Shown: one piece after another, positions 88-60,637 of the stretch
Layout: each line of letters starts with the position of its first letter
Position numbering within the stretch: position 1 is the first letter of the stretch
Assembly: GCA_016839815.1 (NCBI GenBank)
Contig: JAEOTM010000171.1
Coordinates: forward strand, 1 to 63,473
From: Candidatus Hodarchaeota archaeon
GTDB taxonomy: Archaea > Asgardarchaeota > Heimdallarchaeia > Hodarchaeales > Hodarchaeaceae
DNA length: 63,473 nt
Direction: 5' to 3'
Made by a program: the position numbers and the translations under genes
Notes under the pieces: model-generated
What the model was told of the DNA's origin: nothing
The model's input: the letters and a program-made list of their open reading frames with translations, nothing else
The model's database searches: none

Positions 88-3000
88 CTAGTTTTTCCGT
101 CTAGCTTTTACTCGTTCAAAGATAACTGCAATTCCAATACCAAAACCTAAGGCAATAATATCTAGTAAGATGAATTGAATTAGGTCTATTGGACGTAATA
201 CACCAGGTCCACCGGGAGGATTTGTTGTAGTGCTAGGAGGAACGGTGGTTGTTGTTCTGGGAAGGAGAATGTTGAAATCTGTCGATCCTACTGTTAAAGA
301 GTTGCCTACGTTGTCAAAAATGGTCATTCTTACAAGATAATGGCCATCACCCAGGCTATTGGCGTTCAGAGTAAGACTAGCATTGGTATCTGCGATCAAG
401 GATACTTCAGCATCAGTTGGATCGAAAGTTTGCTCCAGTGTATTATCATCAGCATCATATAGTTCAAATCTTAAGAAATCAACGTTGATTCCACTCTTTA
501 TATCAAAATATGAAATTACGATTTCGAAAGTGCCTCCAGAGATCTGGGCTGGTGGTGGTGATTCTATTGCTATTCCGGGACTCTCATCTTCTAGTTCAAC
601 AGTCAAAAGTGTTTGATTTGTTCTACCCGCCATATCTGTAACGAAAATCACTAACTCCCAGGTTGTTTGACCGACATACAAGGAATTTCGACTTAAAGTA
701 ATAGAATCAAAGATATCCCAGTCGTAAAAATAAGCACCTCCACCTACATTAAGATCTTGATCATCTAGGGTTAGTACGGTAGCACCACCTTGGGATCGGA
801 CGATTAACTGGACACTGGATTCCTCTACTCCAGAATTACGGCCTGTGAAGGAACTAGAGTCGGAAAGAACACCAGAAATAGAAACATTTCCATTAGCATC
901 CATAGTAGGATATATAATGCCTTGGACAGTTATGGAGGTGACACTAATAGTTGCTGAAGGATCAATAACATCAATAACGGCAATAAACGAGACGTTCGCT
1001 AAGTTATTAGCGTTATCTAACGCGGTGATTGAAATGAAAAATTCAGTGTCTCCAACAGTGGAGGTATCCCAATCATATGAGAAAATTGAACCAACAGTAT
1101 TTATCATGGAAAAGTCTGCACCGTTTATCGTAATCGTGACGGAACTTGTATTCAAACCCAATGAAACATAACCTGGAGGGGTACCCGCATCGGGATCGAA
1201 TATATCAGCAATAATGGTAGTTGTAGGACTATATGGCAAAGCTATTGTGTCTATATTGGTTGGTGCCACAAGAGTAATATCAGGAGCTGTACTATCCACT
1301 GCTATCCAGTTGAAAGTAACCATAAAAACAGTAGACAGAAATGTACCATTATCTAGACGATGTTGAAGACTCCAAATCCAAGAAACAGTGGTTAATCCTG
1401 TAAATGGCTGATCAAAGTTAAATGATCCTCCACTTCCACTAGTTCTTGTTCTTGGAGTTCCATTCCAATCTTCATATAGTTGTTTTCCTGATAATCCTCG
1501 ATTAATTTGATCTACCAAATCCCCTAAGATATTTACGTCACGATGTAAATCTCCTACTATACGATACGTACCACCATTCGTTATAGATATTGTTGATCCG
1601 TTAGCAGGGAGGTATATTTCAAATGATGAGGGTAAGATATTTATTGCGTTATAAACATTGATTCCGAGGGCAAAGATTCGTGGACGGTAATGGAGGAGGT
1701 TTGGTCCCCAAATTACTCTGGATCGGATACTAATTGCATTTAAAGCATAATTATTAGGGATTTGATAATCCAACGTAAAGCTTCCCGAGGTTAAACTTCC
1801 AACTGTAGCTGTGCCAACTTCTTGAAGACCATCATATCCAACGTTCCGAATTAAACCAACAAATTGAGCAGAATTGACATTTACATCTTGATCATCCTGA
1901 ATTGTTCCAGATGAAGTAATGCTTTCCCCAGTAAACACAGCATTTCCGCTGTAACCGCTAAGTGTATGTCCTGTTATAGATAGTCTTGATATTAACCTAA
2001 CATTGGAGATTGAACTACGAGCTTCTTGAGGAGTCGGAGTTGCAGGATCCCAACCATAGATCGATATATCCTGCAAAACAATAGATCCAGGGATAGTGAT
2101 GATCCTCCAAAATTCACCATCACTATCAGTAACGACATCTGTTAGTGTATAAGTTTGTGGTGTAGGAATTGTTACATTATAAGCAAGTCTTACAGTAGTA
2201 GATGCAAGTCCAAGACCAGTTTCTTGATCATAATAACTACCAGAAATATTGAGAGAAGTTGTATCTCGATAAATCTCATAATATCCATTAGATACATTTA
2301 AACCAGCGTCAGGATGGGTCCCATCTGTTATATCGTTAACTGGATCTTGAATAAGAACTTGAATTCGATCCACATTTTTAACTTCGAAATTAAATGTTGT
2401 GAATGAAATAGTATTCGTATGAGAACCATTTACCCAGACACCTGATAATTTTCCAGATGGAACAGCTGAGTGGGTAAAATTATAGGTCAACCCTTGAGCA
2501 TCTCCAAAATGAGCTGTTGCATTCATAGTATACCACTTCTCAGGGGTTGTTCCAGTCGCTTGAAGTGAAAAAATCGCTTTACTAACAGCTGAATCTTGGT
2601 AGCTCCCAACTGGGATAACATTCATATTAATCGTGGGATCTCCTGGAAGTTTTCCATCAACTGTGATAGAAATGTTCACATCATCAATATCTGCGAGTAC
2701 TACTCCTCCTCTGTTTAATCTTAGTGTAAATTCAATATTGATCCACTCGGTTTGACCAATACGAGAATCTGGATTATCTGCTGGATAAGCAACGATTTGG
2801 CCTAAGAAATACTGCGGATCAACCTGTATTATTTCTTCAACATCTGAATAAGAGCTGTTTGAAAAGAAATTTATGTTAGTAGATTTTTGACCAACATCCC
2901 ATTCACTATCCACACCAACATCGGATGTTAGGTCAGCTGTTGCATTAAGTACAATACCGAGAATCTTGGGTGTAGTTAGATATGTGGTTGTCAATCGAAC

Positions 3001-5244
3001 TGTAACATATCCTGATCCGTTTGTGACTGAACCTCCAACGTAAACCAGAGAAACACCTGCGTAAATACCTCCAAGAACCACATTTACGTCCACTCCTCCA
3101 AGTCCTACTCCACCACCTTCTTCTTGAACCCTGAAATCAATTTCAAGAATATCTCCAGATCGTATTGTCGTATCTCCCGATTCGTTTGTATCAGAAAGCA
3201 CTATTTCATAAAAAGTAAAAGCAGGGTCGATTCTTAGACTACTATCTTGTGCAGTTCGCCATGTCTTATCCCATTCAGCGAAGGTAGTAGTGCCTTCATG
3301 TTGATTCCCAATCCATCTCACCTGTGAGTCATTTTCAAAGTCGACTGTTAGATCTAACACAATTATCTTAAGGATCTCGGGAGTCGTTAGATATATACTA
3401 TTCACAGTTACTTCAATCATACCATTTGAATCAGTTGTACGATACCCGTAAATTCCATATACAGGATTACGACCATCATTGAATGACAATGAGACACCAG
3501 GAGTTACTTGGTTTAATACAATTTTAACGGGTACATCTGCAAAATCAACCAAAGGAGCAGAAGTTGTATTAACCTCAAATACCAAAATGGCTGACTCTCC
3601 TGGTCGAATACTCGTTGATGTAATAGAATTTAAGCTAATATCACCAATCCAGAAATCAGGATCGATACTTATCATATCCCCTCCTGAAGAAGCTGTTAAT
3701 ATACCCGTTGAACTTCTCATAAAACGATGGGGATTGTTAGGATAGCTACTAGGATACGGGCCAGCAGGAGCATTGGTACTACGTAAATCAGCTACTGCTG
3801 TAATTGTAGGAGTTTTTAATTGATAAGGGATAGGAAAACCTGCAGTGATAGTAAATTGAACGATTCCACTCCCATTGGTTATTGCCCAGCCTGAACCATT
3901 ATCAAGAAAACCTGTGGCAAATTGAAGAGTGATCCCTGTTGGATGTGAATCTAAGGTTGCATTCACAGGAATTCCTGCCACCTGATAAATATCGCTTGTA
4001 TATGCGTAATCTAAGTCCACTCTGAAAGTTACAAGTGTAGAATTTTCATTTGGTGGTGCAATTGATGTTGAGGGAACAGCGGAGACAAATTCAACCGAGG
4101 CAACATCCATCTCATTTAATATCGTAAAATTCGAAGTAGAATCAGCATAATTGGTTAAAGGATCATTACCGTCATAATGTTCCGTAAAATATCCAGAAAC
4201 AGGATCAATTGTAGTATTAAGTATAAAATAGTAATCATTTTCTAAAGTAGTAGGATAAGTTGTTGTTACATTCAGCCTGAGCTCTCCATTGGCGTCTGTT
4301 AATGTACTTGGTAAATTAGTACTCATATCGAGGAGATTATAACTTATCCCTTCGGGGCCTCCACTTGAAATAGGAGCATCAGTAGTGCCATCATAAAGAT
4401 CTGCACTAACTGTAAGCCCTGATAAAGGAGTAGTGCCTGAATAGGCCTTAAGAACAACACTAGCTTCTTCTCCCTGACGAAAAGTATTATCACCACTTGC
4501 TATATTAACAAAACCAGGATTGACCTCGGTTAGAGCTGAAAAACCGCTTACAATGAAATAATCAATCTTTGCAAACGGATTCACATTTTCAATTTTCGCT
4601 GTTGTATTTGTACTGCCTCCTGGGTAGTATTGGTAGATTGAAACATTGTCTCCAGGTGAGATCCCGTACTTAGTGGATAAATCAGTCATATCTGGTATTG
4701 TGAAGGAAGCTTCGATTTTCCCTTCTGTAGGGTCATTAGAGATGGCAGGAATTACAGGTGTCCCATTAGTTACGGCAGATGCAATTAGATGATTTGAATC
4801 AGTAAGGTTTGTATAATCATATTTATGTAGATAAATAGAAATATTTTGATTGATAATGGCCCAGTTACCTGTTTGTGCACTATTAAACCGATTACTCACA
4901 CTGATGATTTCTCCCGGGAAATAAATAGTTTTATCAGGTTCGATTTCAGTAATAGAAAAATAGGGAGATTTCTGTGATTCTTTGTTACGATAAATCCCTG
5001 AACGGGGAAGAGAATGTGTGTCTTGGCTAGGTTCACGTAAAGAAGTTAAATAACGATCTGTTGGCTGAATTTCTTGGGGAAGAGTACTCCCAACAAATGG
5101 GAACAGAACAGTAGATAAGAGTAAAAGAGGAACTATTAATATTACGGAGTAAAACGGCGATGAGCGTTTATTATATTTCAACAATTTCAATTCACCGAAC
5201 AGAGTGTTGATTAGAACTGAGATTAAGATCGGAGGGTTTTCCAT
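88..5244 (-). CDS. Very large cell-surface/adhesin-like protein with tandem Ig-like (invasin/Big-like) modules and a C-terminal membrane anchor
   Basis: 1718-aa ORF with an N-terminal hydrophobic signal segment, Thr/Asn/Asp-rich beta-strand composition, a recurring T[DN]xxGxV...Y[LP]TTP motif, D[ST]xAP..I..DxAGN Ig-type motifs near the C-terminus, a Thr/Pro linker, a TM helix and a basic tail (KARRKN). The true start may be about 20 codons downstream. Confidence 0.75.
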   Translation of the reverse strand: MENPPILISVLINTLFGELKLLKYNKRSSPFYSVILIVPLLLLSTVLFPFVGSTLPQEIQPTDRYLTSLREPSQDTHSLPRSGIYRNKESQKSPYFSITEIEPDKTIYFPGEIISVSNRFNSAQTGNWAIINQNISIYLHKYDYTNLTDSNHLIASAVTNGTPVIPAISNDPTEGKIEASFTIPDMTDLSTKYGISPGDNVSIYQYYPGGSTNTTAKIENVNPFAKIDYFIVSGFSALTEVNPGFVNIASGDNTFRQGEEASVVLKAYSGTTPLSGLTVSADLYDGTTDAPISSGGPEGISYNLLDMSTNLPSTLTDANGELRLNVTTTYPTTLENDYYFILNTTIDPVSGYFTEHYDGNDPLTNYADSTSNFTILNEMDVASVEFVSAVPSTSIAPPNENSTLVTFRVDLDYAYTSDIYQVAGIPVNATLDSHPTGITLQFATGFLDNGSGWAITNGSGIVQFTITAGFPIPYQLKTPTITAVADLRSTNAPAGPYPSSYPNNPHRFMRSSTGILTASSGGDMISIDPDFWIGDISLNSITSTSIRPGESAILVFEVNTTSAPLVDFADVPVKIVLNQVTPGVSLSFNDGRNPVYGIYGYRTTDSNGMIEVTVNSIYLTTPEILKIIVLDLTVDFENDSQVRWIGNQHEGTTTFAEWDKTWRTAQDSSLRIDPAFTFYEIVLSDTNESGDTTIRSGDILEIDFRVQEEGGGVGLGGVDVNVVLGGIYAGVSLVYVGGSVTNGSGYVTVRLTTTYLTTPKILGIVLNATADLTSDVGVDSEWDVGQKSTNINFFSNSSYSDVEEIIQVDPQYFLGQIVAYPADNPDSRIGQTEWINIEFTLRLNRGGVVLADIDDVNISITVDGKLPGDPTINMNVIPVGSYQDSAVSKAIFSLQATGTTPEKWYTMNATAHFGDAQGLTYNFTHSAVPSGKLSGVWVNGSHTNTISFTTFNFEVKNVDRIQVLIQDPVNDITDGTHPDAGLNVSNGYYEIYRDTTSLNISGSYYDQETGLGLASTTVRLAYNVTIPTPQTYTLTDVVTDSDGEFWRIITIPGSIVLQDISIYGWDPATPTPQEARSSISNVRLISRLSITGHTLSGYSGNAVFTGESITSSGTIQDDQDVNVNSAQFVGLIRNVGYDGLQEVGTATVGSLTSGSFTLDYQIPNNYALNAISIRSRVIWGPNLLHYRPRIFALGINVYNAINILPSSFEIYLPANGSTISITNGGTYRIVGDLHRDVNILGDLVDQINRGLSGKQLYEDWNGTPRTRTSGSGGSFNFDQPFTGLTTVSWIWSLQHRLDNGTFLSTVFMVTFNWIAVDSTAPDITLVAPTNIDTIALPYSPTTTIIADIFDPDAGTPPGYVSLGLNTSSVTITINGADFSMINTVGSIFSYDWDTSTVGDTEFFISITALDNANNLANVSFIAVIDVIDPSATISVTSITVQGIIYPTMDANGNVSISGVLSDSSSFTGRNSGVEESSVQLIVRSQGGATVLTLDDQDLNVGGGAYFYDWDIFDSITLSRNSLYVGQTTWELVIFVTDMAGRTNQTLLTVELEDESPGIAIESPPPAQISGGTFEIVISYFDIKSGINVDFLRFELYDADDNTLEQTFDPTDAEVSLIADTNASLTLNANSLGDGHYLVRMTIFDNVGNSLTVGSTDFNILLPRTTTTVPPSTTTNPPGGPGVLRPIDLIQFILLDIIALGFGIGIAVIFERVKARRKN

Positions 5245-48018: not shown

Positions 48019-48447
48019 GTGAAAGAATTGGCTACTTTTGATAATATGACATTAGGAGATAATAATGGATATCCTGTTATGGAACAGGTTCAAAAAATTA
48101 TTGATGGACTGGGAACGGTAAAAGGAGTAAAAAAAGTTCTATTGGTAACAGAGGAAGGTTTTCCTATTCTGTCAGCAAGGACCTTACCAATGTCAGATGA
48201 AGTAGAGACAGTCGTATCTGCAATGGTCGCAGGAATTGTCAGTACATTTTCCAGTGCATGTATTCAATTAAATTTAGGAGATCAGGTTGATTTTATTCAT
48301 GTTCAAACTCCGATAGGTCTTGGTATTATTTCAAAAGTGCAGAGTACTATTCTTGTGCTTATCACAGACTCAAATGTGAAGCTAGGTTTAATGCACTACT
48401 TGGTTAGTTCCACTAAAATGAAACTTTTAAAAACTCGAGAATTTTGA
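48019..48447 (+). CDS. Roadblock/LC7 (MglB-like) domain protein
   Basis: GV..VLLVT.EGFPI.S, VSAM.A, LVLIT....KLGL. The start may be the ATG at 48046 or 48079. Confidence 0.88.
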   Translation: MKELATFDNMTLGDNNGYPVMEQVQKIIDGLGTVKGVKKVLLVTEEGFPILSARTLPMSDEVETVVSAMVAGIVSTFSSACIQLNLGDQVDFIHVQTPIGLGIISKVQSTILVLITDSNVKLGLMHYLVSSTKMKLLKTREF

Positions 48448-48604
48448 ATTGCTTAGAGAGGAAAAAGACGTTCTAATTTGAATATTTAAAAAATTTTTTT
48501 TTCAATCAGTAAAAGTCATCCTTTTATTAACGAATATTCTAGAGACTCCAAATAACATACTTATACTTTTAATGTTATAATTTGTCTTATTTGGTGAGTT
48601 TACA

Positions 48605-49063
48605 TTGTCTTTAGATGAATCCCAATTACAGTTATTTCCAGTCCCTTGTACAACAGGTATGGAACCGATGTGTATACTAGATCCTGATCATCCGTGTTGT
48701 GAAAAAATTAAGCGAGAAACTGTTGAATTTAAGAATGGAATACTAATAAAGCAAGGGAATTCTGCAATTGTATCACTTAAATTATCGTTTAATGATCCTG
48801 TTGAGGAGTTTATATTTGATCGAATACGTAATGAATTATGGCGAAATCCCGGGAGCCATGTCAAAGTAATTCGAAGTCCAGAAGAAGGTTTTCAGATCTC
48901 ATTTTTCTTGACATTAGATATGGTTAAATCAGAAGAACAACGAAGAAAATTAGTTGCTTATTGGGATGATTTTGCTATCAATATACGTCAAGTTCTGACT
49001 GATGGAAAAATGGCAGTAAATAAGTTTGTACGAAGTAGAACCACAAGTTTGAGGCTGGATTAA
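48605..49063 (+). CDS. ARPC4-like protein (Arp2/3 complex p20 subunit homologue)
   Basis: By-eye alignment to ARPC4: NSAIVSL~NSVRVSI, DPVEE~DEIEK, R.PEEGFQISFFLT~RKPVEGYDISFLIT, KLV....F~KLVDF..HF, KMAVN..VR~KLSVN.RAR. Confidence 0.78.
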   Translation: MSLDESQLQLFPVPCTTGMEPMCILDPDHPCCEKIKRETVEFKNGILIKQGNSAIVSLKLSFNDPVEEFIFDRIRNELWRNPGSHVKVIRSPEEGFQISFFLTLDMVKSEEQRRKLVAYWDDFAINIRQVLTDGKMAVNKFVRSRTTSLRLD

Positions 49064-51340: not shown

Positions 51341-53017
51341 GTGAAGAATAAGAGCTCTATTCCAAGAATTGTCTCTATTGTATCCTATATTGCTATTTTC
51401 ATTATTTCATCAAGTATGATAATCAGGGGGACAGCTCTAAATGGTCACTTTGCCCAATTGGATCCTTTCTACGAAGAAACACTTTTTGCTCTAAAATTCG
51501 ATTATAATGACAATATTCCACCTGAACAATCCCTGCAATTACATAGTAATCTCATAACAGGTCTTGATTATCCCGTTCAGACTGATCCAGATCCTGAACT
51601 AGATAATAATGTTACGCTTATTAATCATGATTTACATAATATTAGGTCTACATTCTTAGCTTTGGAAAATATCCAAAGATCAGAGTATATTCCTTTGTAT
51701 GGGACTGTAGAATGGCAAGCATCTCTTCCTTACTTTAAATATATAACTATATATAATTTACCTTCAGGAGAAAATGTTATTCAAACTCAGGACTTGATGG
51801 GATTGACTTTAAAGTTGGACAGAGAACCATTTGAAAATGATGAATACCTTGTAGGGTATGCAAATATTCCTCTAGATTTTTTGGAATTTATTTTTGAGTC
51901 AATCAATACAGTCCAAATAAAGCAAAATTCCATTGATGGGCTTTCAAGTTCGATTGATATTCCTAAATTCTCTAGTATTATTCCAATGGATGTTGAGATA
52001 AAAGAAAATAAAAACGAGTTAATGATTACTATCGAATATTCTAATATCACATATTTATTTCAAACAGATCCCATTGATTCAGAGCAAATTGTCACTTTCA
52101 ACCTTTCAGATAAATTTGTTCTTGTAGAATTTGAATCAATGAGATTTTCAACTAGAATATTAAAATACTCAACCTCTACTAATGTAGGAGCGGAAATACA
52201 GGTAGAAATGAAGGTTGGGGGTATTCGCAACTTACTAATTAATGAAGAATTGCCTTCGAGTACTATTTGGTCTGATTCTACTGAAACCTACATCGAAAAG
52301 CACTACAAGGAGCTTTTCTCTTTAGAAGAAACAATCTCATGGTACAAGGGAGATGATATAGAAAAAAGGTTGTTATTATTCAGTGATACTTCTCTTTCGT
52401 TCCTAGTTTCTCATAATCTAGGTGTATTAGAAGGTGTGGAGTCTACAGAGAACTCATATGTTAAAATTGATGGATATAACACATCTAGGGAGGATCTAAT
52501 ACAATCGGACATTATGATTAGTGATAATGTCACAATTACTCAGAATGAGGATGTTTTATTTATAAATCATATTAAAGGCAAAGATTATGCGCTTCATCAA
52601 GATCCTAAATCAACTAGTTGGGAATTAACCCCAGCAAAAATACGTTCTTTGGCAATAAATCAACATCCAAGCTTAAGTGGTAATATTCTATTCTTAGAAG
52701 AATCGTCCATTCTAAACTCATTAATGGTTGATGGTTTAAAGCGATTCATTGCTAATGCCACATTAAGCTCACTTAGTGAGGAACAACTACTTAAAATTGC
52801 GACTTTGTATCTTCCTTCAGCCGAATATATTCAAGAGTTTCAAATAGACTCATGGCTTGGCTATCCTACTAAAATAAAATCGACAACAACGACAATTCTT
52901 GATTCTAATAATTTAGATATCGGAGTCTCTAAAATATCAAATATCCCGTTCCTTTCAAGCATTCTTTCTCTGTCATTAATGGTTTTATATCAGGTAAGAA
53001 TTCGTCGGAAAAAATAA
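51341..53017 (+). CDS. Secreted/surface protein with C-terminal sorting-like TM segment
   Basis: N-terminal signal, acidic beta-rich body, C-terminus NIPF-hydrophobic helix-RIRRKK. It starts immediately after the stop of the upstream regulator. Confidence 0.65.
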   Translation: MKNKSSIPRIVSIVSYIAIFIISSSMIIRGTALNGHFAQLDPFYEETLFALKFDYNDNIPPEQSLQLHSNLITGLDYPVQTDPDPELDNNVTLINHDLHNIRSTFLALENIQRSEYIPLYGTVEWQASLPYFKYITIYNLPSGENVIQTQDLMGLTLKLDREPFENDEYLVGYANIPLDFLEFIFESINTVQIKQNSIDGLSSSIDIPKFSSIIPMDVEIKENKNELMITIEYSNITYLFQTDPIDSEQIVTFNLSDKFVLVEFESMRFSTRILKYSTSTNVGAEIQVEMKVGGIRNLLINEELPSSTIWSDSTETYIEKHYKELFSLEETISWYKGDDIEKRLLLFSDTSLSFLVSHNLGVLEGVESTENSYVKIDGYNTSREDLIQSDIMISDNVTITQNEDVLFINHIKGKDYALHQDPKSTSWELTPAKIRSLAINQHPSLSGNILFLEESSILNSLMVDGLKRFIANATLSSLSEEQLLKIATLYLPSAEYIQEFQIDSWLGYPTKIKSTTTTILDSNNLDIGVSKISNIPFLSSILSLSLMVLYQVRIRRKK

Positions 53018-53376
53018 GCCGTTAAAAAAAATGAATTTTTAAAAAAAAAAAAAAAAATTCAATTATTGGAAGGAATCTTAATTCCCTCACGAATCGTTAC
53101 TTGTATGGGTTAAGATTTAATGTAATAAGGCAATTTATAGTCTCTAGTAATTATGAGTTGACAAATAATAAAGAAAACTCTCCGTAAAAACGAAATCTTG
53201 TGAGACCAAACTGGTTTTAAACCCTCGGATAGTTTCTCTATATGATTTTGCGGATTTTCATAACATATCATGTTATAAGTCACTGGCATTGAGAAATACA
53301 TAGACTTTGGACTCGATTAAATGAACTCAGATAAAAGAGAGAATTTATCGAGAATTCCAAGAAAGGTGTTTTAATA

Positions 53377-55164
53377 ATGAAGAAGAAAATTATTATGGGA
53401 ATATCGGTAATGTTTTTACTGATACTTCTTACTTTTACTACTCCAGCTCAAGCCACAGATTATGCGGGGCATGATTTTAGTGAAGATCATTTTGCTGTTG
53501 AAATAGATCTTTACAACAATCCAGCAAACCCTGACGTAATCTATGATTTTGAAACTGGGGTAGAAGGTTCAGATTCGATCCCTGAGACTGATTTACAATT
53601 CTTTATGACATATATGAACAAATCTGGGATTGAAGTAGCATATTCTGCGTTAGAAAAAATGGAACACTGGATAAAGTTCCGTGATTTACTGCCAAGCGAT
53701 GTTACTGAAGTCATTGATACACTTGGACCCGCTTTTCCAGATGGAGTTGAAGCTCTTGATACCAATCTCGTTCATATAAATGCAACCGCTCCATTCCAAC
53801 AATTAGTTCAACACTTCAATACTCCTTGGGGTACCGATGCTTTCATTACAAATAACTTCATGACGTTAATTGCGTACTCTGGTGGTACTGGTACTAATCT
53901 CACCAAAATGGATGCTCAAGACAATCTCTATATGGGGTATACTTTCGCAGTCCAAGAAGTAGCAGAAGCTCTTAACGATGTCATGGCGCCACATTATGAA
54001 ATTCCCCCATTCGATTATGAAGCTAGCTTTGAACAGACCGCAGATGGATACAAATTTGGTATCAATTACACAAACCTGTTCGTCTTATGGCAAGATATCG
54101 AAGTGGAACTTCGTGGACCAGATTATTTATCCGCAGCAGGTCTCCAATTACCAAAGACTAAAGGAATTATATATGGTGAGGATATTGTAGCTGCATCAGT
54201 GCTAGATCATCTTGCATTTGAGTATATTTTCAAGGTAGAAGAAATTACTATTAGTACAACTCCATCCATCAAGGCTAATTTGGGAACAGTTGAGACGAGA
54301 TATCATATTGGTGAAACTGATCTACTGATTACAAGAGATAATGATGCATTCATTGCTGCTCATGCCGCTGAATGGCTTGGTTCACCCTTTACCGCAACAC
54401 CCAGTTATACTCTTGACGTTCCTGCAACACTACAAGGCAAGACGGTTCCTGGAAGCTCATGGACATTTCCAGCAAGCGTAACACTGACATTGTCAGAAAT
54501 GGCCTTCTTTATCGAGAACGATGCAAAAGTTCGAATGAGTATGGCCGATGCATTCGGATTAACTGTTGTAACAGCTACAAATTGGTTTGATGCTGAAGTT
54601 GTCAGCAATCCACAGTATGCAACTCATCTCGATGAACCAGAAAACCCAAGAATTGACTTTTCAAAGGATGAAAATGTTTTCTTCTGGACAAGCTTCAAAG
54701 ATAAAATGAACTACAAGCTAAGAGAAATGGATTTTGCTCCGTTCAACGAGGACCCCAACATAGATCGTGATGTTTACGTAACATTAGCTATTCCTAGTGG
54801 ATGGTTTGCAACAAATGTAGCAAAACCATATTTCATTGTCGAATTTTCACTCGCTTGGGGTTTTACAGTCTTTATGGCGTCTAAAATAGCTCCAGAAATT
54901 GTACATCCAGGAGCAGGACAACACACTGAAGTAGTTAACCAAATTCTCTATATGACATTCACAGAGTTCCCAGAGTGGTACGGTGGAGAAATCTATCATG
55001 ATCCCTCTTATTCAGCTGTAGCTGCAGTTGCTGCTCAGCCAGATTCAACCACTGATAGCCCACCTGGAAGCGATACCACTGGAGCAAACATTCCAGGATT
55101 TGAATTGATCTCTGTGTTAGTTGCTCTCCCTCTGATGTATGCTGGTTATCGAAAGAGACGATAG
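53377..55164 (+). CDS. Cell-surface glycoprotein with PGF-CTERM-like sorting signal
   Basis: Signal peptide MKKK...PAQA, N-glycosylation sequons, Ser/Thr/Pro/Asp linker, then IPGFE-TM-YRKRR. Confidence 0.78.
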   Translation: MKKKIIMGISVMFLLILLTFTTPAQATDYAGHDFSEDHFAVEIDLYNNPANPDVIYDFETGVEGSDSIPETDLQFFMTYMNKSGIEVAYSALEKMEHWIKFRDLLPSDVTEVIDTLGPAFPDGVEALDTNLVHINATAPFQQLVQHFNTPWGTDAFITNNFMTLIAYSGGTGTNLTKMDAQDNLYMGYTFAVQEVAEALNDVMAPHYEIPPFDYEASFEQTADGYKFGINYTNLFVLWQDIEVELRGPDYLSAAGLQLPKTKGIIYGEDIVAASVLDHLAFEYIFKVEEITISTTPSIKANLGTVETRYHIGETDLLITRDNDAFIAAHAAEWLGSPFTATPSYTLDVPATLQGKTVPGSSWTFPASVTLTLSEMAFFIENDAKVRMSMADAFGLTVVTATNWFDAEVVSNPQYATHLDEPENPRIDFSKDENVFFWTSFKDKMNYKLREMDFAPFNEDPNIDRDVYVTLAIPSGWFATNVAKPYFIVEFSLAWGFTVFMASKIAPEIVHPGAGQHTEVVNQILYMTFTEFPEWYGGEIYHDPSYSAVAAVAAQPDSTTDSPPGSDTTGANIPGFELISVLVALPLMYAGYRKRR

Positions 55165-55397: not shown

Positions 55398-57968
55398 ATG
55401 ACAAATATTGATCTCCTAACGGACCCGATAAACCTAGTAGTATCTGTACTATTAACATTTTCTCCTTTAATCGTACTATTTCTCCCATATCTATATACAA
55501 GAAGAAAGACGGAGAATTTTTTTGCAACACTTTTCAATCGTGCTTATATCGGCTTTGTTATATTTTATATTGCATATTTCATCTTTCCTAGTATTTTAAA
55601 TTCTTTTGTACCAGATCCCAATCAATTTATTGATCAAGAATATTATCCAGTTGCTGGGTCATCTGGATGGACTACTGTATGGGATTCCGAATCTGTAATC
55701 ACTCAAGGAGCGATTTCTGTACCCATTCCCCTTCTGGTAAAGTATCTCTTTCAACATTTCTTTAATTCAATAGTTATTTTTCTCAGTTACCCAATTGTGA
55801 TACTGGCTTTCGTCTTTGGGATCTCCCCGATAGTATCTATGTTAATCATTTTTTACCAAACTTGGACTGAGAAACGAAATGAGATAAATCCGATAAGAAA
55901 ACTGATAAAAAGGAATAAAAATGAAATTTCACAACTTCAGAAGCAATTGAAGAACGCTAGTGATCCAGAATCATATGAAAAGAATGTAACTCTTTCTGAG
56001 TATAAAACAGAGAACAATGACTTGGAAAAACAGCTTTCTGATACTAGATCAATTACTCAGAGATTACAAGAGATCCAGTTTGAACTTGATACCTCTCCCT
56101 TCCATGCGGTCACAAAACGGGTAAAGGAAAAGAATTGGGATAATGAGCGAGAATTATTAAAAGTTTTGATAGCTATTTTACCTATTTCGTTATTTCTTTT
56201 AATGACAATTTTACAGCTTCTTGGAGAGACAGAAAACCCAAGCTTGCTACAAGGAACATCTATGGGGTGGTTTTTAGAGATCTATTTTGCGTATATCGCT
56301 ACTTTTGTCTTTAGTATTTATCTAATAAAAGCGAGTCTTTTGTCAAGAAAGGGAAAATTCTTAGGAAATCAATTATATATTGCAATGGTTCAGAGTTTAT
56401 CAACTGTCGGAGCTTTTATGTCAGGATTAGCTGTTATATTGTTCTTGGTGCAGTATTTTGACCAAATTTTTGTAGTTTCATACTTTATTGTTTATTTCAT
56501 AATGGTTTCTTTGTTTTTCGTACTTTTCCTTGATGTTTTCGAACCCTTCTCAATATATTTACTTCTTAAGCTCATAGAAAGTTTTAAAGCATTTAAAATC
56601 TCCGTTGGCCGTTTTAACAGAGCGAACATTACTAAAAGTATTACCTCTGGTGTTTTAGTTGGTTTTCTTCTTTCTGTTGGTTTTTTAACCTACTTGGTGA
56701 TTGTTAAGAGTATCTTTACAAATTTTAATACAGTCCAATATGCTACATTTTTCTGGTTAACACAAAATTATGCTAGTTTTCTGTTAAGTGCTACATTAGT
56801 TTTGGTTGTTAGAAGATGGAATTGGAGTGTTATTGGTACAAGTATTCTCACTTATCTATCAATCTTATTTGTGAGTCTATTCTTGTTTGGATGGTACAAT
56901 GAGGGTTGGTATACTTTACTAGGCTTCTCTGTTGAGGATTTGTACCCAAACTATCAAGGTGAAATTTTAGTTGCCCCTTTTATTCAAGCTACATCAGTTC
57001 TGGGCACCATTGACTTAAATTGGCTAACAGCTGTATGGAAAGGCGGAACCTTTGGTGATTACCAATTTTTACTTCCTGAACTTAGACAAATACCCATAGT
57101 TTGGCAGGGTGATGGAGGACAATTTCTACAGGTCTTGTCTATTCCTTATAATCTTTTTCATCCATTAGCGATTGTTTTAGTATATGGTGGAGTCCTCTTC
57201 TTAGCCGGAAAACAATTTCATGTGAGAACACAAAAAGGCGAAGAGAAAACACAATATAAATCAATTTTCTCTGATGTGACGAGACTACTTAGCGCTGATG
57301 AACTAGAAAAGAAAGCTGATATTCTTTTAATCACAGCTACTCCAGCGAAAGACGAAAAAACTGCAAACCTAATAGATAAAGCATGGATGAAATCAGAAAA
57401 GGGTAAAATGCTACAGGACACGCTAACCGGGCAGATGCAACCTATAAATAAAATAATCGAACAAACGGGTGTTTCTGCACATGAGATTCATTCAATTCTT
57501 GATGAAGTAACTTATGATGCTGAAGTACCTTTCAATCAAATCATAACACTTTGGCATCGTGAATTTGCTTATTCCTTTGAAGAAGTCACTATCGATTCAC
57601 TCCACGTTATGATGTTAGATGGACGAGCTGTTCTCTCCCATACATTTGCAGAAGAATCGCAGGTAGAACCGGCATTAGTGGCTGGGTTATTTTCTGCTAT
57701 TACTTCATTTGCAAAAGAAGCTGTTCGAAGTGAGCAATTACTCAAGACTATTGACCATGGGGATGTCGTTCTAACGATCGAATATGCTAAATGGGTTTTT
57801 GCCGCAATTTTTGCAGATAGTACATCCACTGAATTACGTAAAAAACTTGGTAAATTCTTGAATGATTTTGAAACAAGGCACAAGAAGACTCTACCCAAAT
57901 GGTTGGGGGAGTTAGACGCGTTCGCGGGAGAAACAGATTCAATTAAGGAGCTTTTCCCTAGAGGGTAA
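55398..57968 (+). CDS. Polytopic membrane protein with a coiled-coil loop and a C-terminal longin-like domain
   Basis: About 13-15 hydrophobic helices and a coiled coil near aa 155-230. The C-terminal LHVMM.DGR.V.SH.F....EP.LV.GLFSAI.SFA.E...TIDHGD..L.IE pattern is typical of Asgard longin-like domains. Confidence 0.7.
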   Translation: MTNIDLLTDPINLVVSVLLTFSPLIVLFLPYLYTRRKTENFFATLFNRAYIGFVIFYIAYFIFPSILNSFVPDPNQFIDQEYYPVAGSSGWTTVWDSESVITQGAISVPIPLLVKYLFQHFFNSIVIFLSYPIVILAFVFGISPIVSMLIIFYQTWTEKRNEINPIRKLIKRNKNEISQLQKQLKNASDPESYEKNVTLSEYKTENNDLEKQLSDTRSITQRLQEIQFELDTSPFHAVTKRVKEKNWDNERELLKVLIAILPISLFLLMTILQLLGETENPSLLQGTSMGWFLEIYFAYIATFVFSIYLIKASLLSRKGKFLGNQLYIAMVQSLSTVGAFMSGLAVILFLVQYFDQIFVVSYFIVYFIMVSLFFVLFLDVFEPFSIYLLLKLIESFKAFKISVGRFNRANITKSITSGVLVGFLLSVGFLTYLVIVKSIFTNFNTVQYATFFWLTQNYASFLLSATLVLVVRRWNWSVIGTSILTYLSILFVSLFLFGWYNEGWYTLLGFSVEDLYPNYQGEILVAPFIQATSVLGTIDLNWLTAVWKGGTFGDYQFLLPELRQIPIVWQGDGGQFLQVLSIPYNLFHPLAIVLVYGGVLFLAGKQFHVRTQKGEEKTQYKSIFSDVTRLLSADELEKKADILLITATPAKDEKTANLIDKAWMKSEKGKMLQDTLTGQMQPINKIIEQTGVSAHEIHSILDEVTYDAEVPFNQIITLWHREFAYSFEEVTIDSLHVMMLDGRAVLSHTFAEESQVEPALVAGLFSAITSFAKEAVRSEQLLKTIDHGDVVLTIEYAKWVFAAIFADSTSTELRKKLGKFLNDFETRHKKTLPKWLGELDAFAGETDSIKELFPRG

Positions 57969-58003
57969 CCTCTCACCTTCTTTCTTTTTATTTCAAAAAC
58001 ATA

Positions 58004-60637
58004 TCAGGATAGTTGTGCTATTACACAGAGGAAGCCTTTGGACTTAAACCTTGAAATCGAGATTATTAGTTCAGCACTTCCCGATGATATAATAATTTTT
58101 GGCCCCTTTAAAGGATTGGTTGCTTTCTTTAAGGGGTGAAATCCAGCTTTAGATAATAAAGCTAAGCTTTCGACTAATTCCTCCTCATTATATATGTTAA
58201 TACTGGGAGTATTATTCTTTATTTTAATATTTGATTCGAATACAATATCTCGGACTAATATATCCTCTTTAAGCTGTTCTGGTATACTATTTTCTTGAAC
58301 TTCTAACAGAATTTGTGTTATCCATTCAATGGTCCCTTCTCCGTTTTGTTGAAAAGGAACTTCGGTGTGATAATCAAATTCATGTACATAATGGGAAGGA
58401 TCGTCGTCGTCAGCTTTTACACCTCTGTCTTCCGAGGATTGAATAATTCTGTCAAAAGAGGGTAATTTACGGTTACTATTTTGTGGTACTAAAATCTTAT
58501 CTTTAAACAAGTCCAGGAGTTTTTCGAATATTTCTATATATTTAAATTTAGAACTAAATAATCCATGATTTACTATTTCTTTAATGAATAGGCCTTCTGA
58601 GTTTGCTAACTGATTACTCTGCTCTTGAACCACTAATAAAAGTTCATTGTCATAATTTTCTGACTCAATTTCTTTATTAATTACTAGCGGTCCTAATAGA
58701 GATAATCCAAGGAGTTGATCTAAATCTTCAATCGCAGCTTGAAACGGATCAAGTTCTCCAACGAAATCTACAAGGTATCTTTGAAATCTCTTTTCAAAAG
58801 CATATACAAACTCCCGCCCTCGCTTTCTTAAACGATTATTGAATTTTGGGGGACGTTCAAGTATTAATGCCGTTACAGAATAATTTCCTTCAAATGTAAC
58901 TATTTTAAACGTTCTATCACCGATGTCTTCTGTAAAATCTCTTACTATCGTTCGATCCTTTACCTCTTCACTTTTCAATTCAGTAAAAAGGCTAGAAATC
59001 GCTGATAAAAATCCAGATACCAATTGTGGATCAACTTTTAACATTGAGGTGCCGAATTTAAATAAACAAATTCCCGTGAGCTTGTGTGTGATCATTATAT
59101 GCTCACAATAAAGAAGATTGACTAAATCTTTGTAATCTATGGGATTGATTGAGATTTCTGAATGCTTTAAATCAGTATCATCTTCTTGTTTCACTTCTGG
59201 GTACTCATCTATTATTTGATGTTTTTCTTCGTGTAGAGTCGTAGGAGAAATTCGGGGGATTAGATCAGGCATTTGATCTTTTTGAGGGTCAACATGTTTC
59301 GTTACTCGTGCACGAATCTGGATTTTTATTGGACTGGAAATTCCCTCCTGCAATCCCACAATAAGAGCTTCTCCTTTTGTGAGGTGAGGAAGAACAGAAA
59401 CGACACTCGAATTTATTCCCTCCATTAACCGAATCTTTGTAATATCCTTCTCAGATTTTATTCGAAGAGCAATTAAGGTATTCATATTAGCAATTATATT
59501 ATCTGGCAGATCTCCTGGTCTTTGGGAGATTAGAATCTCATATACTCCAAATTTTCTTCCTTCACGTGAAATTTGAGCAAGGATATCGCTCTTGTGCGCA
59601 AATCTGTGGGCCTCTTCTAAGATTATGAGAATTTCCTGTTCATTTGGGATATCTCCATGGATCTTTTTCTGAAAAATTTGAGTAAGAAGTTCATTCACCA
59701 GTGTATTGCGTTTTTTCTCGTCTGTATATTGATCCAAACGAATGATAGAAACTTGGTTTTTCCGTACTAGATTGGTAATATCTACTTCTTTTGTATATAC
59801 AGACTGCTTACTTAACACATTTATTTTAGATATTAAATTTTCACGTGTTTGTGTATGCATATCAGCCTTGTAAATTCTCTTTAAGATAGTATCCAATTTT
59901 TCTGGTTTTTGTATTATACTTGTTAAGACATTTTCTTGAGCTGGTGAAATTTCCAAAAGTCGTCTTAATTTTGGTAGATCGAAATGCGTTCCTAGACCAA
60001 TAGATCCTTTATCAAAGACTGTTAACTTATCGATAAACCCTTGAGGGCTGTACCCCTCTCGATTAAGAGTTTTGATTTCCTCTCCAGTATTTTCTAATCC
60101 TAAACCCCAATACTCGTTATGAACGTCAAAAAGCAGAATCGATGCATCCTTAATTTTCATGAGGATTTCTTCAAGCAGTACTCCTATACTATATGATTTT
60201 CCAGCCCCAGTACTCGCTATACACAAGACATGTCGTTCCAAAAATTGGGGTGAGATCAAGAATGGGTCAGTTGAAATAGAAGAAGTTACAATATCTCCCA
60301 AATAAATTCCCTCTTCTCCATCATAGGAAATAATTTTCGAAATCAATCCTTTTGGAGGAATTGATATTTCAGAGTTCATTGAGATAGGAATTCGACATGG
60401 ATTTAGACGAAATTCATCCATTTCAAACTCTCCAAGTATATTCGCAATCCCTTTCATCTGTTTCTCCTTCTCTTGGGATAACTTATTAACTTGAGCTAAT
60501 AGATGATTATTAGTTGACTTATTTTGATCAAAAAGGATGATATAGTCACCTTCATGCACCAAATTATCGCTGACTTCTGAGAGAAAAGTGATATTGGAAG
60601 TAGTTGTTTTTATAATCTTCATTGGTAATTCAACCAA
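58004..60637 (-). CDS. HerA/DUF87-type ATPase fused to a longin-like domain and a C-terminal extension
   Basis: HAS-barrel-like N-terminus, RH....ASTGAGKS (Walker A), D.H.EY, ILEEAH (Walker B), REGRKFG, SQRP, then HK.TGICLF...DPQLVSGFLSAISS...E longin-like domain. Confidence 0.82.
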   Translation of the reverse strand: MVELPMKIIKTTTSNITFLSEVSDNLVHEGDYIILFDQNKSTNNHLLAQVNKLSQEKEKQMKGIANILGEFEMDEFRLNPCRIPISMNSEISIPPKGLISKIISYDGEEGIYLGDIVTSSISTDPFLISPQFLERHVLCIASTGAGKSYSIGVLLEEILMKIKDASILLFDVHNEYWGLGLENTGEEIKTLNREGYSPQGFIDKLTVFDKGSIGLGTHFDLPKLRRLLEISPAQENVLTSIIQKPEKLDTILKRIYKADMHTQTRENLISKINVLSKQSVYTKEVDITNLVRKNQVSIIRLDQYTDEKKRNTLVNELLTQIFQKKIHGDIPNEQEILIILEEAHRFAHKSDILAQISREGRKFGVYEILISQRPGDLPDNIIANMNTLIALRIKSEKDITKIRLMEGINSSVVSVLPHLTKGEALIVGLQEGISSPIKIQIRARVTKHVDPQKDQMPDLIPRISPTTLHEEKHQIIDEYPEVKQEDDTDLKHSEISINPIDYKDLVNLLYCEHIMITHKLTGICLFKFGTSMLKVDPQLVSGFLSAISSLFTELKSEEVKDRTIVRDFTEDIGDRTFKIVTFEGNYSVTALILERPPKFNNRLRKRGREFVYAFEKRFQRYLVDFVGELDPFQAAIEDLDQLLGLSLLGPLVINKEIESENYDNELLLVVQEQSNQLANSEGLFIKEIVNHGLFSSKFKYIEIFEKLLDLFKDKILVPQNSNRKLPSFDRIIQSSEDRGVKADDDDPSHYVHEFDYHTEVPFQQNGEGTIEWITQILLEVQENSIPEQLKEDILVRDIVFESNIKIKNNTPSINIYNEEELVESLALLSKAGFHPLKKATNPLKGPKIIISSGSAELIISISRFKSKGFLCVIAQLS

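Follow-up and report, generated by a model that had tools for sequence, protein, structure and literature searches.

Convergent genes for a longin-bearing Asgard membrane protein and a longin-bearing HerA-type ATPase in a Hodarchaeales archaeon

Gene layout and the shared longin domain

The DNA analyzed here is a stretch of 63,473 nucleotides (nt), referred to below as the window, from an archaeon of the order Hodarchaeales; it corresponds to contig C149 in an Asgard assembly of 4.2 Mb. Within it two large genes, A and B, face each other tail to tail. Gene A encodes a polytopic membrane protein and gene B a soluble HerA-type ATPase, and both proteins carry a longin domain in their C-terminal parts (Table 1). 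Database homologs of both carry the names Hodarchaeales or Heimdallarchaeota. The stop codons lie at 57966-57968 (A) and 58004-58006 (B), which leaves the 35-nt gap reported in a first-pass annotation made from the sequence alone. The oligo-T tracts found on both strands of this spacer may be archaeal terminators. Because the genes are convergent, co-transcription of A and B is impossible.

The open reading frame (ORF) list places the start of B at a TTG codon at 60637, giving a protein of 877 residues. The ATG at 60622, giving 872 residues, is the start in every database ortholog and in the window's own protein record, and is the start used here. Residue numbers for B (protein P0002) nevertheless count from the TTG at 60637.

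Table 1. Features of the A-B locus, with positions in the window. TM, transmembrane; pLDDT, predicted local distance difference test. Residue numbers of B count from the TTG at 60637.
Feature	Position	Strand	Description	Basis
Gene A (P0001)	55398-57968	+	856-residue polytopic membrane protein; C-terminal longin, probably cytoplasmic	ORF
A, predicted TM helices 1-3 (residues 8-156)	55419-55865	+	Probable external loop at residues 73-116	Hydropathy; model helices 10-34, 41-70, 112 onward
A, charged helical hairpin (157-245)	55866-56132	+	Coiled-coil-like; probably cytoplasmic	Model helices 112-186, 189-214
A, predicted TM helices 4-11 (246-604)	56133-57209	+	Probable external beta-hairpin loop at residues 505-583 (last external loop)	Hydropathy, model
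A, linker (605-715)	57210-57542	+	Small beta sheet and helical bundle; probably cytoplasmic	Model DSSP
A, longin (716-856)	57543-57965	+		VIA, Foldseek, conservation
Intergenic spacer	57969-58003	.	35 nt, convergent; oligo-T tracts on both strands	Sequence read directly
Gene B (P0002)	58004-60622	-	872-residue soluble HerA-type ATPase with C-terminal longin-helical-alpha/beta arm	ORF; start from orthologs
B, C-terminal alpha/beta domain (771-877)	58007-58327	-	Confidently modeled	Model helices 348-362, 379-391; strand 373-378 and four strands
B, acidic linker (726-770)	58328-58462	-	Disordered; 17% mean identity	pLDDT <50
B, small helical domain (651-725)	58463-58687	-		Model helices 191-204, 226-237, 246-256, 261-273; strand 277-279
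B, longin (501-650)	58688-59137	-		Model topology; VIA Z 12.1 to 8yqg_B
B, putative barrel-like N-terminal region, then HerA P-loop ATPase core (6-445)	59303-60622	-		Pfam, NCBIfam, PDB, motifs, tree
g595, upstream of A	53377-55164	+	Secreted protein; N-terminal signal-like helix, PGF-type C-terminal TM anchor	

The first-pass annotation had assigned one domain type, longin, to both proteins and had quoted a motif from each. Both motifs are present, and the assignment is borne out at the level of sequence and of fold. Residues 755-845 of A align with residues 534-635 of B by BLASTP with 34% identity over ~100 residues (E 4e-9), and profile-profile comparison with hhalign, using 27 orthologs of A and 22 of B, gives a probability of 95% (E 3.6e-8). 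By these comparisons the shared domain is homologous in the two proteins, beyond chance. The Pfam models Longin, Sybindin, Sedlin and Robl_LC7 gave no match to A or B up to E 1, and no longin or roadblock model of NCBIfam matched either protein. The missing match to a curated model is a detection limit and not a defining feature of the longin fold. The fold was therefore assessed on AlphaFold2 models.

In the model of the C-terminal arm of B (pLDDT 73, and ~90 in the longin part), DSSP places strands at 72-79, 85-90, 125-133, 136-144 and 148-154, and helices at 98-115 and 161-184 (model numbering), with a topology of beta-beta-alpha-beta-beta-beta-alpha-alpha. In a structural search against representatives the best match to the arm was the longin domain of a Lokiarchaeota Roadblock-Longin protein (8yqg_B; model residues 63-209, Z 12.1 over 136 residues, 3.0 Å), followed by the longins of AP5 sigma, Sec22, VAMP7 and TRAPP. 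Roadblock structures, Roadblock/MglB included, scored lower than longins, at Z 8.8-10.6.

The full-length model of A has a pLDDT of 80 and a predicted template modeling score of 0.79. Its longin comprises strands at 716-728, 732-739 and 744-749, a helix at 758-774, three strands within 784-806 and helices at 811-827 and 839-852 (DSSP), and so has one N-terminal strand beyond the canonical two. A VIA search superposes residues 731-856 on 7q3d_C (Z 13.3), on the Sec22 longin 3egd_C (Z 13.1; 118 residues, 2.5 Å) and on the VAMP7 longin 4afi_B (Z 12.7); over all, the CPLANE, Sec22, VAMP7 and AP mu longins are matched at Z 12.3-13.3. Foldseek returned longins only for this domain, with AP sigma/mu, zeta-COP and TRAPP among them. 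The models thus confirm a true longin fold for both domains, which resemble Asgard and eukaryotic longins (8yqg; Sec22, VAMP7, AP sigma/mu, TRAPP sedlin/synbindin, SRX) at Z 12-13. Judged by their fold, the two longins may dimerise or act as platforms for small GTPases. A complex prediction for the longin of A (residues 714-856) with that of B (497-654), run with alignments for both and without controls, gave a score of 0.02 (mark 0.32), and we weigh it neither for nor against binding.

The membrane protein and the motor

Hydropathy, the helices of the model and the K/R-rich loops (positive-inside rule) together predict ~11 TM helices in A, with the N-terminus outside and the C-terminus inside the cell. 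This is fewer than the ~14 helices of the first-pass annotation. Within the charged hairpin, residues 157-218 match coiled coils only (VIA). Conservation along the chain is uneven. Among Hodarchaeales-type orthologs the longin is the most conserved region, with a mean identity of 87.5%, and TM helices 4-10 follow at 74%. The poorly conserved linker has a mean identity of 49%, and the hairpin, at 52%, is the least conserved region after it. Across 27 orthologs, whose identity over the C-terminal part is 49-86%, about 85 residues of the longin core are nearly invariant, and this pattern would fit an interface used by several partners. A 135-residue ORF runs antisense within the longin-coding part of A (57569-57976, minus strand); given the extreme conservation of the sense frame at the protein level, it is most likely spurious.

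A profile of the TM domain, searched against 1.84 billion representative proteins, retrieved only 78 clusters, all of the same family. Ten of these were looked up, and all of their organism-named members are Asgard (Promethearchaeota, Baldrarchaeia and Odinarchaeota). Among 201 sampled Asgard genomes, A is present at full length in 10/10 other genomes of the same family and in seven further Asgard families (34/40, 4/4, 3/3, 3/3, 3/3, 3/4 and 1/1), and it was not found in three well-sampled families (0/21, 0/7 and 0/43). By these searches A is a compact family that occurs in many Asgard lineages and has only Asgard organisms among its named members.

Searched by fold, the full-length model of A gave longin and coiled-coil matches only, and the TM part was barely probed. 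This part matched no solved fold in these searches, and a channel role for A is conjectural. Among Pfam and NCBIfam models A matches no CedA or VirB-like family. Weak matches (an HpsJ-type family at E 0.004-0.01 over TM helix 3 and the charged hairpin, DUF2279 and FapA) are below threshold, and we read them as compositional.

The ATPase core of B matches Pfam DUF87 (E 4.4e-15; 56.8 bits against a cut-off of 23.2) and HerA_C, as well as the HerA chains 9x1l (E 1e-23) and 4d2i (E 7.5e-20) in the PDB. It contains a Walker A motif at A141-S148 (AxxxxGKS), a Walker B motif EEAH at 341-344, an arginine finger in REGRKFG, and SQRP, all of which are invariant or nearly so in 14 sequences. The EEAH sequence is not a defect, since it is also found in the canonical HerA of this genome. 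These matches and motifs confirm an intact HerA-type core, and thus the HerA/FtsK-superfamily assignment of the first-pass annotation; a hexameric ring with a central pore and an N-terminal HAS barrel would be expected of such a motor. The NCBIfam HerA models match B with E 1.5e-28, yet the scores are far below their equivalog cut-offs (NF040819, 99.7 bits against 970; NF040937, 81.8 bits against 800, with the alignment beginning at residue 71), and by this measure B is not a HerA repair equivalog.

In its P-loop core, Walker A, EEAH, arginine finger and SQRP motifs B resembles the archaeal repair HerA (HerA-NurA-Mre11-Rad50; 4d2i, 9x1l), with which it forms sister motor clades. It differs in having an extra arm of 430 residues that is absent from HerA, and in its surroundings: as the first-pass annotation had noted, no nurA, mre11, rad50 or Sir2 gene lies beside the pair. 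The canonical NurA-HerA pair of this genome is on another contig (C65:14676-17082), and B is therefore an additional HerA paralog. A second NurA-family gene is found at G000:C168:1675-2439, separate from the C65 pair.

Hydropathy reveals no TM segment in B, so that any role at the membrane would require a tether. The arm is joined to the ATPase by a poorly conserved linker. Its longin has a mean identity of 63% among orthologs, and the small helical domain that follows looks winged-helix-like by secondary structure. Many Asgard proteins contain longin and helical domain together as a recurrent module (profile positions ~63-300). The C-terminal alpha/beta domain contains an invariant NPL.G motif; profile searches found no PDB match for it and hhalign detects no longin there. 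The structural-match lists for the arm were filled by the longin, and this last domain is uncovered in them. The complete arm (longin, helical and alpha/beta domains) occurs only in a single Hodarchaeales genus and in a small number of deep relatives.

Adjacency, motor replacement and possible coupling

We searched for the adjacency in 24 genomes of the order. A and B are convergent neighbors in 22/22 genomes of the genus (this genome among them); the count includes one genome in which a 100-N scaffold gap cuts A and one in which A ends at the contig edge. The pair is also retained in a deeply diverged lineage (L014), so the adjacency in relatives expected on the first-pass reading is found within the genus and beyond it. 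On contig L014, an A ortholog with 33% identity converges on a 906-residue ATPase, 70 nt away. BLASTP aligns this ATPase with B at 23% identity over 849 residues (E 2e-41), and the match of its arm to the B-arm profile is full-length (E 4.7e-59). L014 lacks all three genes that precede A in the window, and the flanks are rearranged.

The motor of the L014 protein belongs to a different HerA-superfamily clade from that of B. It scores 265 bits (37% identity) against arm-less HerA-like ATPases of other Asgard families (G004-type), compared with 55 bits against the motor of B. In a maximum-likelihood tree the B-type motors form a clade (100/98) with a B ortholog from a deep relative, P0027, and this clade is sister to canonical HerA (100/100). 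The L014 motor groups with the arm-less ATPases, across a 100/100 split from the B-type motors. A search with the L014 motor retrieved HerA-like proteins of 880-1020 residues from other Asgard families, and these have no longin arm. From the tree and the profile scores it holds that the arm stayed beside A while the HerA-superfamily motor was replaced. This is our main argument that the arm, and not the motor, is what relates to A. Two deep cases of arm-bearing ATPases were examined; one is adjacent to A and the other is not.

We suggest, with a probability of roughly 0.4, that A and B are functionally coupled at the membrane, the arm recruiting a HerA-superfamily ring to A. The two genes would then be a lineage-specific module built on an Asgard-wide membrane protein. 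The longin tail of A could provide a docking platform on the inner face of the membrane. B would be a ring ATPase from a sister lineage of the repair HerA that has gained a C-terminal arm, and this arm, rather than the motor, would be the unit tied to A. It might bring the translocase to A either by pairing of the two longins or by way of a common partner, for example a small GTPase; of these steps, direct pairing is the less certain. A polymer could then be pumped at the membrane at the expense of ATP. The HerA ancestry and the winged-helix-like domain make DNA the likelier substrate.

Coupling of this kind has parallels in known systems. In the Ced importer (CedA/CedB), VirB4-VirB3 and FtsK a ring ATPase works at a polytopic membrane protein (PMC9905601, PMC11868833), and the same logic is proposed for A and B. 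The resemblance does not extend to the components. B matches the CedD model at 49.4 bits against a cut-off of 600, and its motor groups with canonical HerA and not with the other Asgard HerA-like clade in the tree. No relationship of A to CedA or VirB proteins can be detected, the pair is not associated with pilins or a VirB-like gene set, and the longin tether proposed here is used by none of those systems. The signal recognition particle receptor SRX-SRbeta, in which a longin attaches a soluble factor to a membrane-anchored partner, is closer to the proposed docking, and SRX is among the structural matches of A (6frk_y, Z 10.8; 5ck3_A, Z 10.7). Its membrane partner is a GTPase, however, and not a second longin, and there is no GTPase in the A-B block.

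The first-pass annotation went further, proposing that a longin-longin interface docks a translocase motor on a membrane channel to form an undescribed Asgard membrane machine. The adjacency and the folds on which this was built stand, and our literature search found no paper on a HerA-longin fusion or on the A membrane family. The machine itself is beyond the data, and A is widespread without B. In its fullest form, longin-longin pairing or a longin-GTPase-longin bridge would dock interchangeable HerA-superfamily motors on an Asgard-specific 11-TM protein and so create a membrane translocation machine; we consider it unlikely that all of this is correct.

A serious competitor, possible although we incline to doubt it, is that A and B are independent neighbors, with separate functions and their own longin partners, kept together by inherited synteny. 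B would then be a cytoplasmic DNA motor regulated by its arm, and A would have an unrelated role. Several observations favor this and weigh against coupling. The 22/22 adjacency comes from a single GTDB genus whose neighborhood is collinear in relatives, and is thus largely shared ancestry. Outside the genus no HerA or arm gene was found within 1.5 kb (19 loci) or 8 kb (15 loci) of A in eight families, Loki-type and Odin-type among them; A must therefore work without B in most lineages, and is no dedicated partner of B. P0027 has the same motor type as B and 27% identity in the arm, and its 3' neighbor is a methyltransferase gene and not A. The sister family within the order shows A without an arm-bearing neighbor and, on another contig, a motor-less arm; both contigs are small. 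Two deeper Heimdall-type contigs (L012, L013) have a homolog of g595 beside A and no B there. Roughly 30 ORFs of this genome carry the longin type of A and B by a domain hidden Markov model, in unrelated architectures, and the longins of A and B are not reciprocal best matches among these paralogs. The convergent orientation also suits independence. Inertia alone, however, hardly explains a pair that persists in L014 at 23-33% identity with its flanks rearranged and its motor replaced. Moreover, ~30 carriers among an assumed ~4000 genes would be expected to give only ~0.2 adjacent pairs by chance.

Coupling need not involve contact between A and B. The two longins might not pair at all, each serving instead as a platform for the same small GTPase, as guanine nucleotide exchange factor, GTPase-activating protein or effector, so that the state of A is coupled to the activity of B. 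From bacteria to eukaryotes, dimers of longin and roadblock domains serve as platforms for GTPases, and Asgard genomes encode fusions of longins with Rag/Arf-like GTPases (PMC10933270; bioRxiv 10.1101/2020.10.19.343400). Contig C198 of this genome carries a longin-GTPase fusion, and a roadblock gene that is kept in relatives lies 7 kb upstream of A (48019-48444). A GTPase gene is nonetheless missing from the conserved block in the window and in three relatives of the same genus (L001-L003), and a common switch seems to us improbable.

The three genes upstream of A raise the prospect that all five genes export, anchor or remodel a surface structure. The five-gene order (a membrane-tethered winged helix-turn-helix protein, two C-terminally anchored secreted proteins, A and B) is kept in L001-L003. 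The g595 type, with its PGF-type anchor, lies directly upstream of A throughout these loci of the genus (L001-L003, g1 loci) and in the deeper L012 and L013. Membership of the set is nevertheless inconsistent: L014 keeps A and B without the three upstream genes, L012 and L013 keep g595 and A without B, and the A genes of Loki-type and Odin-type have other neighbors. The N-termini of the secreted proteins are ordinary and signal-like, and a HerA motor would not be needed for them. The link of g595 to the pair is only positional, and a joint role in the envelope is rather remote. Anti-phage defense on a HerA scaffold, as in Sir2-HerA or DUF4297-HerA, is less probable again: PADLOC HerA models (E 4e-34) and NCBIfam anti-phage HerA models (E 1.5e-20) match the ATPase of B, but the latter reach 73 bits against an equivalog cut-off of 850, PADLOC yields HerA models only and on B only, no effector gene is adjacent, the locus is found at the same, conserved position in each of the 22 genomes of the genus and not in a variable island, and the motor clade has the repair HerA as its sister.

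In eukaryotes the longin is a fold that docks trafficking machinery on membranes. To our knowledge, the docking partners of archaeal longins, which are among the "eukaryotic signature" folds of Asgard archaea, are almost wholly unexplored. The locus offers a concrete and testable longin pair. If A and B bind, it would be a case in archaea of a molecular machine brought to a membrane by longins, and a new mode of tethering for a pump of the HerA/FtsK class. A motor-docking machine, if real, would have no described counterpart, and would imply that longin-mediated membrane docking predates eukaryotes. Even if A and B do not bind, A is a widely conserved and apparently uncharacterised Asgard membrane family. 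That longins have expanded and been fused to other domains in Asgard archaea is already published (PMC10933270; bioRxiv 10.1101/2020.10.19.343400); the fusions described there involve GTPases, TRAPPC3, DENN, NPRL2-type proteins and two-component signaling, where here they involve a HerA ATPase and an 11-TM protein. What is new here is the distribution and Asgard-named membership of A, the near-invariance of its longin, the 22/22 adjacency, the replacement of the motor as supported by the tree, and the counter-examples.

Neighboring genes and other longin carriers

The genes around the pair in the window are housekeeping or surface genes. A longin domain was sought in the three genes upstream of A, and none was found. 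The two secreted proteins among them (g558 and g595, 51341-55164) are distant paralogs, and g595 shares 23% identity over 466 residues with the L013 counterpart of g558. The C-terminus of g595 has a Ser/Thr-rich stretch followed by the PGF-type anchor and KRR. Further upstream, within 48019-49063, the Roadblock/LC7 gene is accompanied by an ARPC4-like gene. Both hold their position relative to the block in L001 and L003, and the L002 locus extends far enough to include the ARPC4-like gene.

The longin type of A and B is fused elsewhere in this genome to MFS, TPR, ParA-like and Rag/Arf-type GTPase proteins and to giant surface proteins. It is found on a polytopic membrane protein without a Pfam family (G000:C162:15315-17051), on an MFS transporter (G000:C101:39151-40860), on a degenerate ParA/MinD-like protein (G000:C89:8268-9977), on a TPR protein (G000:C196:48624-50744), and as the cytoplasmic tail of a 1537-residue surface protein (G000:C23:2483-7093). 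A second adjacent pair consists of two divergent genes with N-terminal longins (G000:C198:779-3851, of which L011 holds 2388-3851), and the member that was scanned against Pfam also has the Gtr1/RagA/Arf-type GTPase domain. On a metagenome contig, 3.7 kb without a called gene (L005:1749-5467) lies upstream of another surface protein with a cytoplasmic longin tail (P0028).

In a genome of the sister family mentioned above, the arm, with its longin, helical and C-terminal domains, is a free-standing protein of 501 residues without an ATPase (L063:1342-2844; G228:C406). The Loki-type A ortholog is divergent from a gene of the histone-deacetylase family, beyond which follow profilin, an FtsX-like permease with an ABC ATPase, and a zinc-ribbon protein (L045:2298-7897). 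This gene order is kept in 7 loci of two families (L045, L051, L055-L059).

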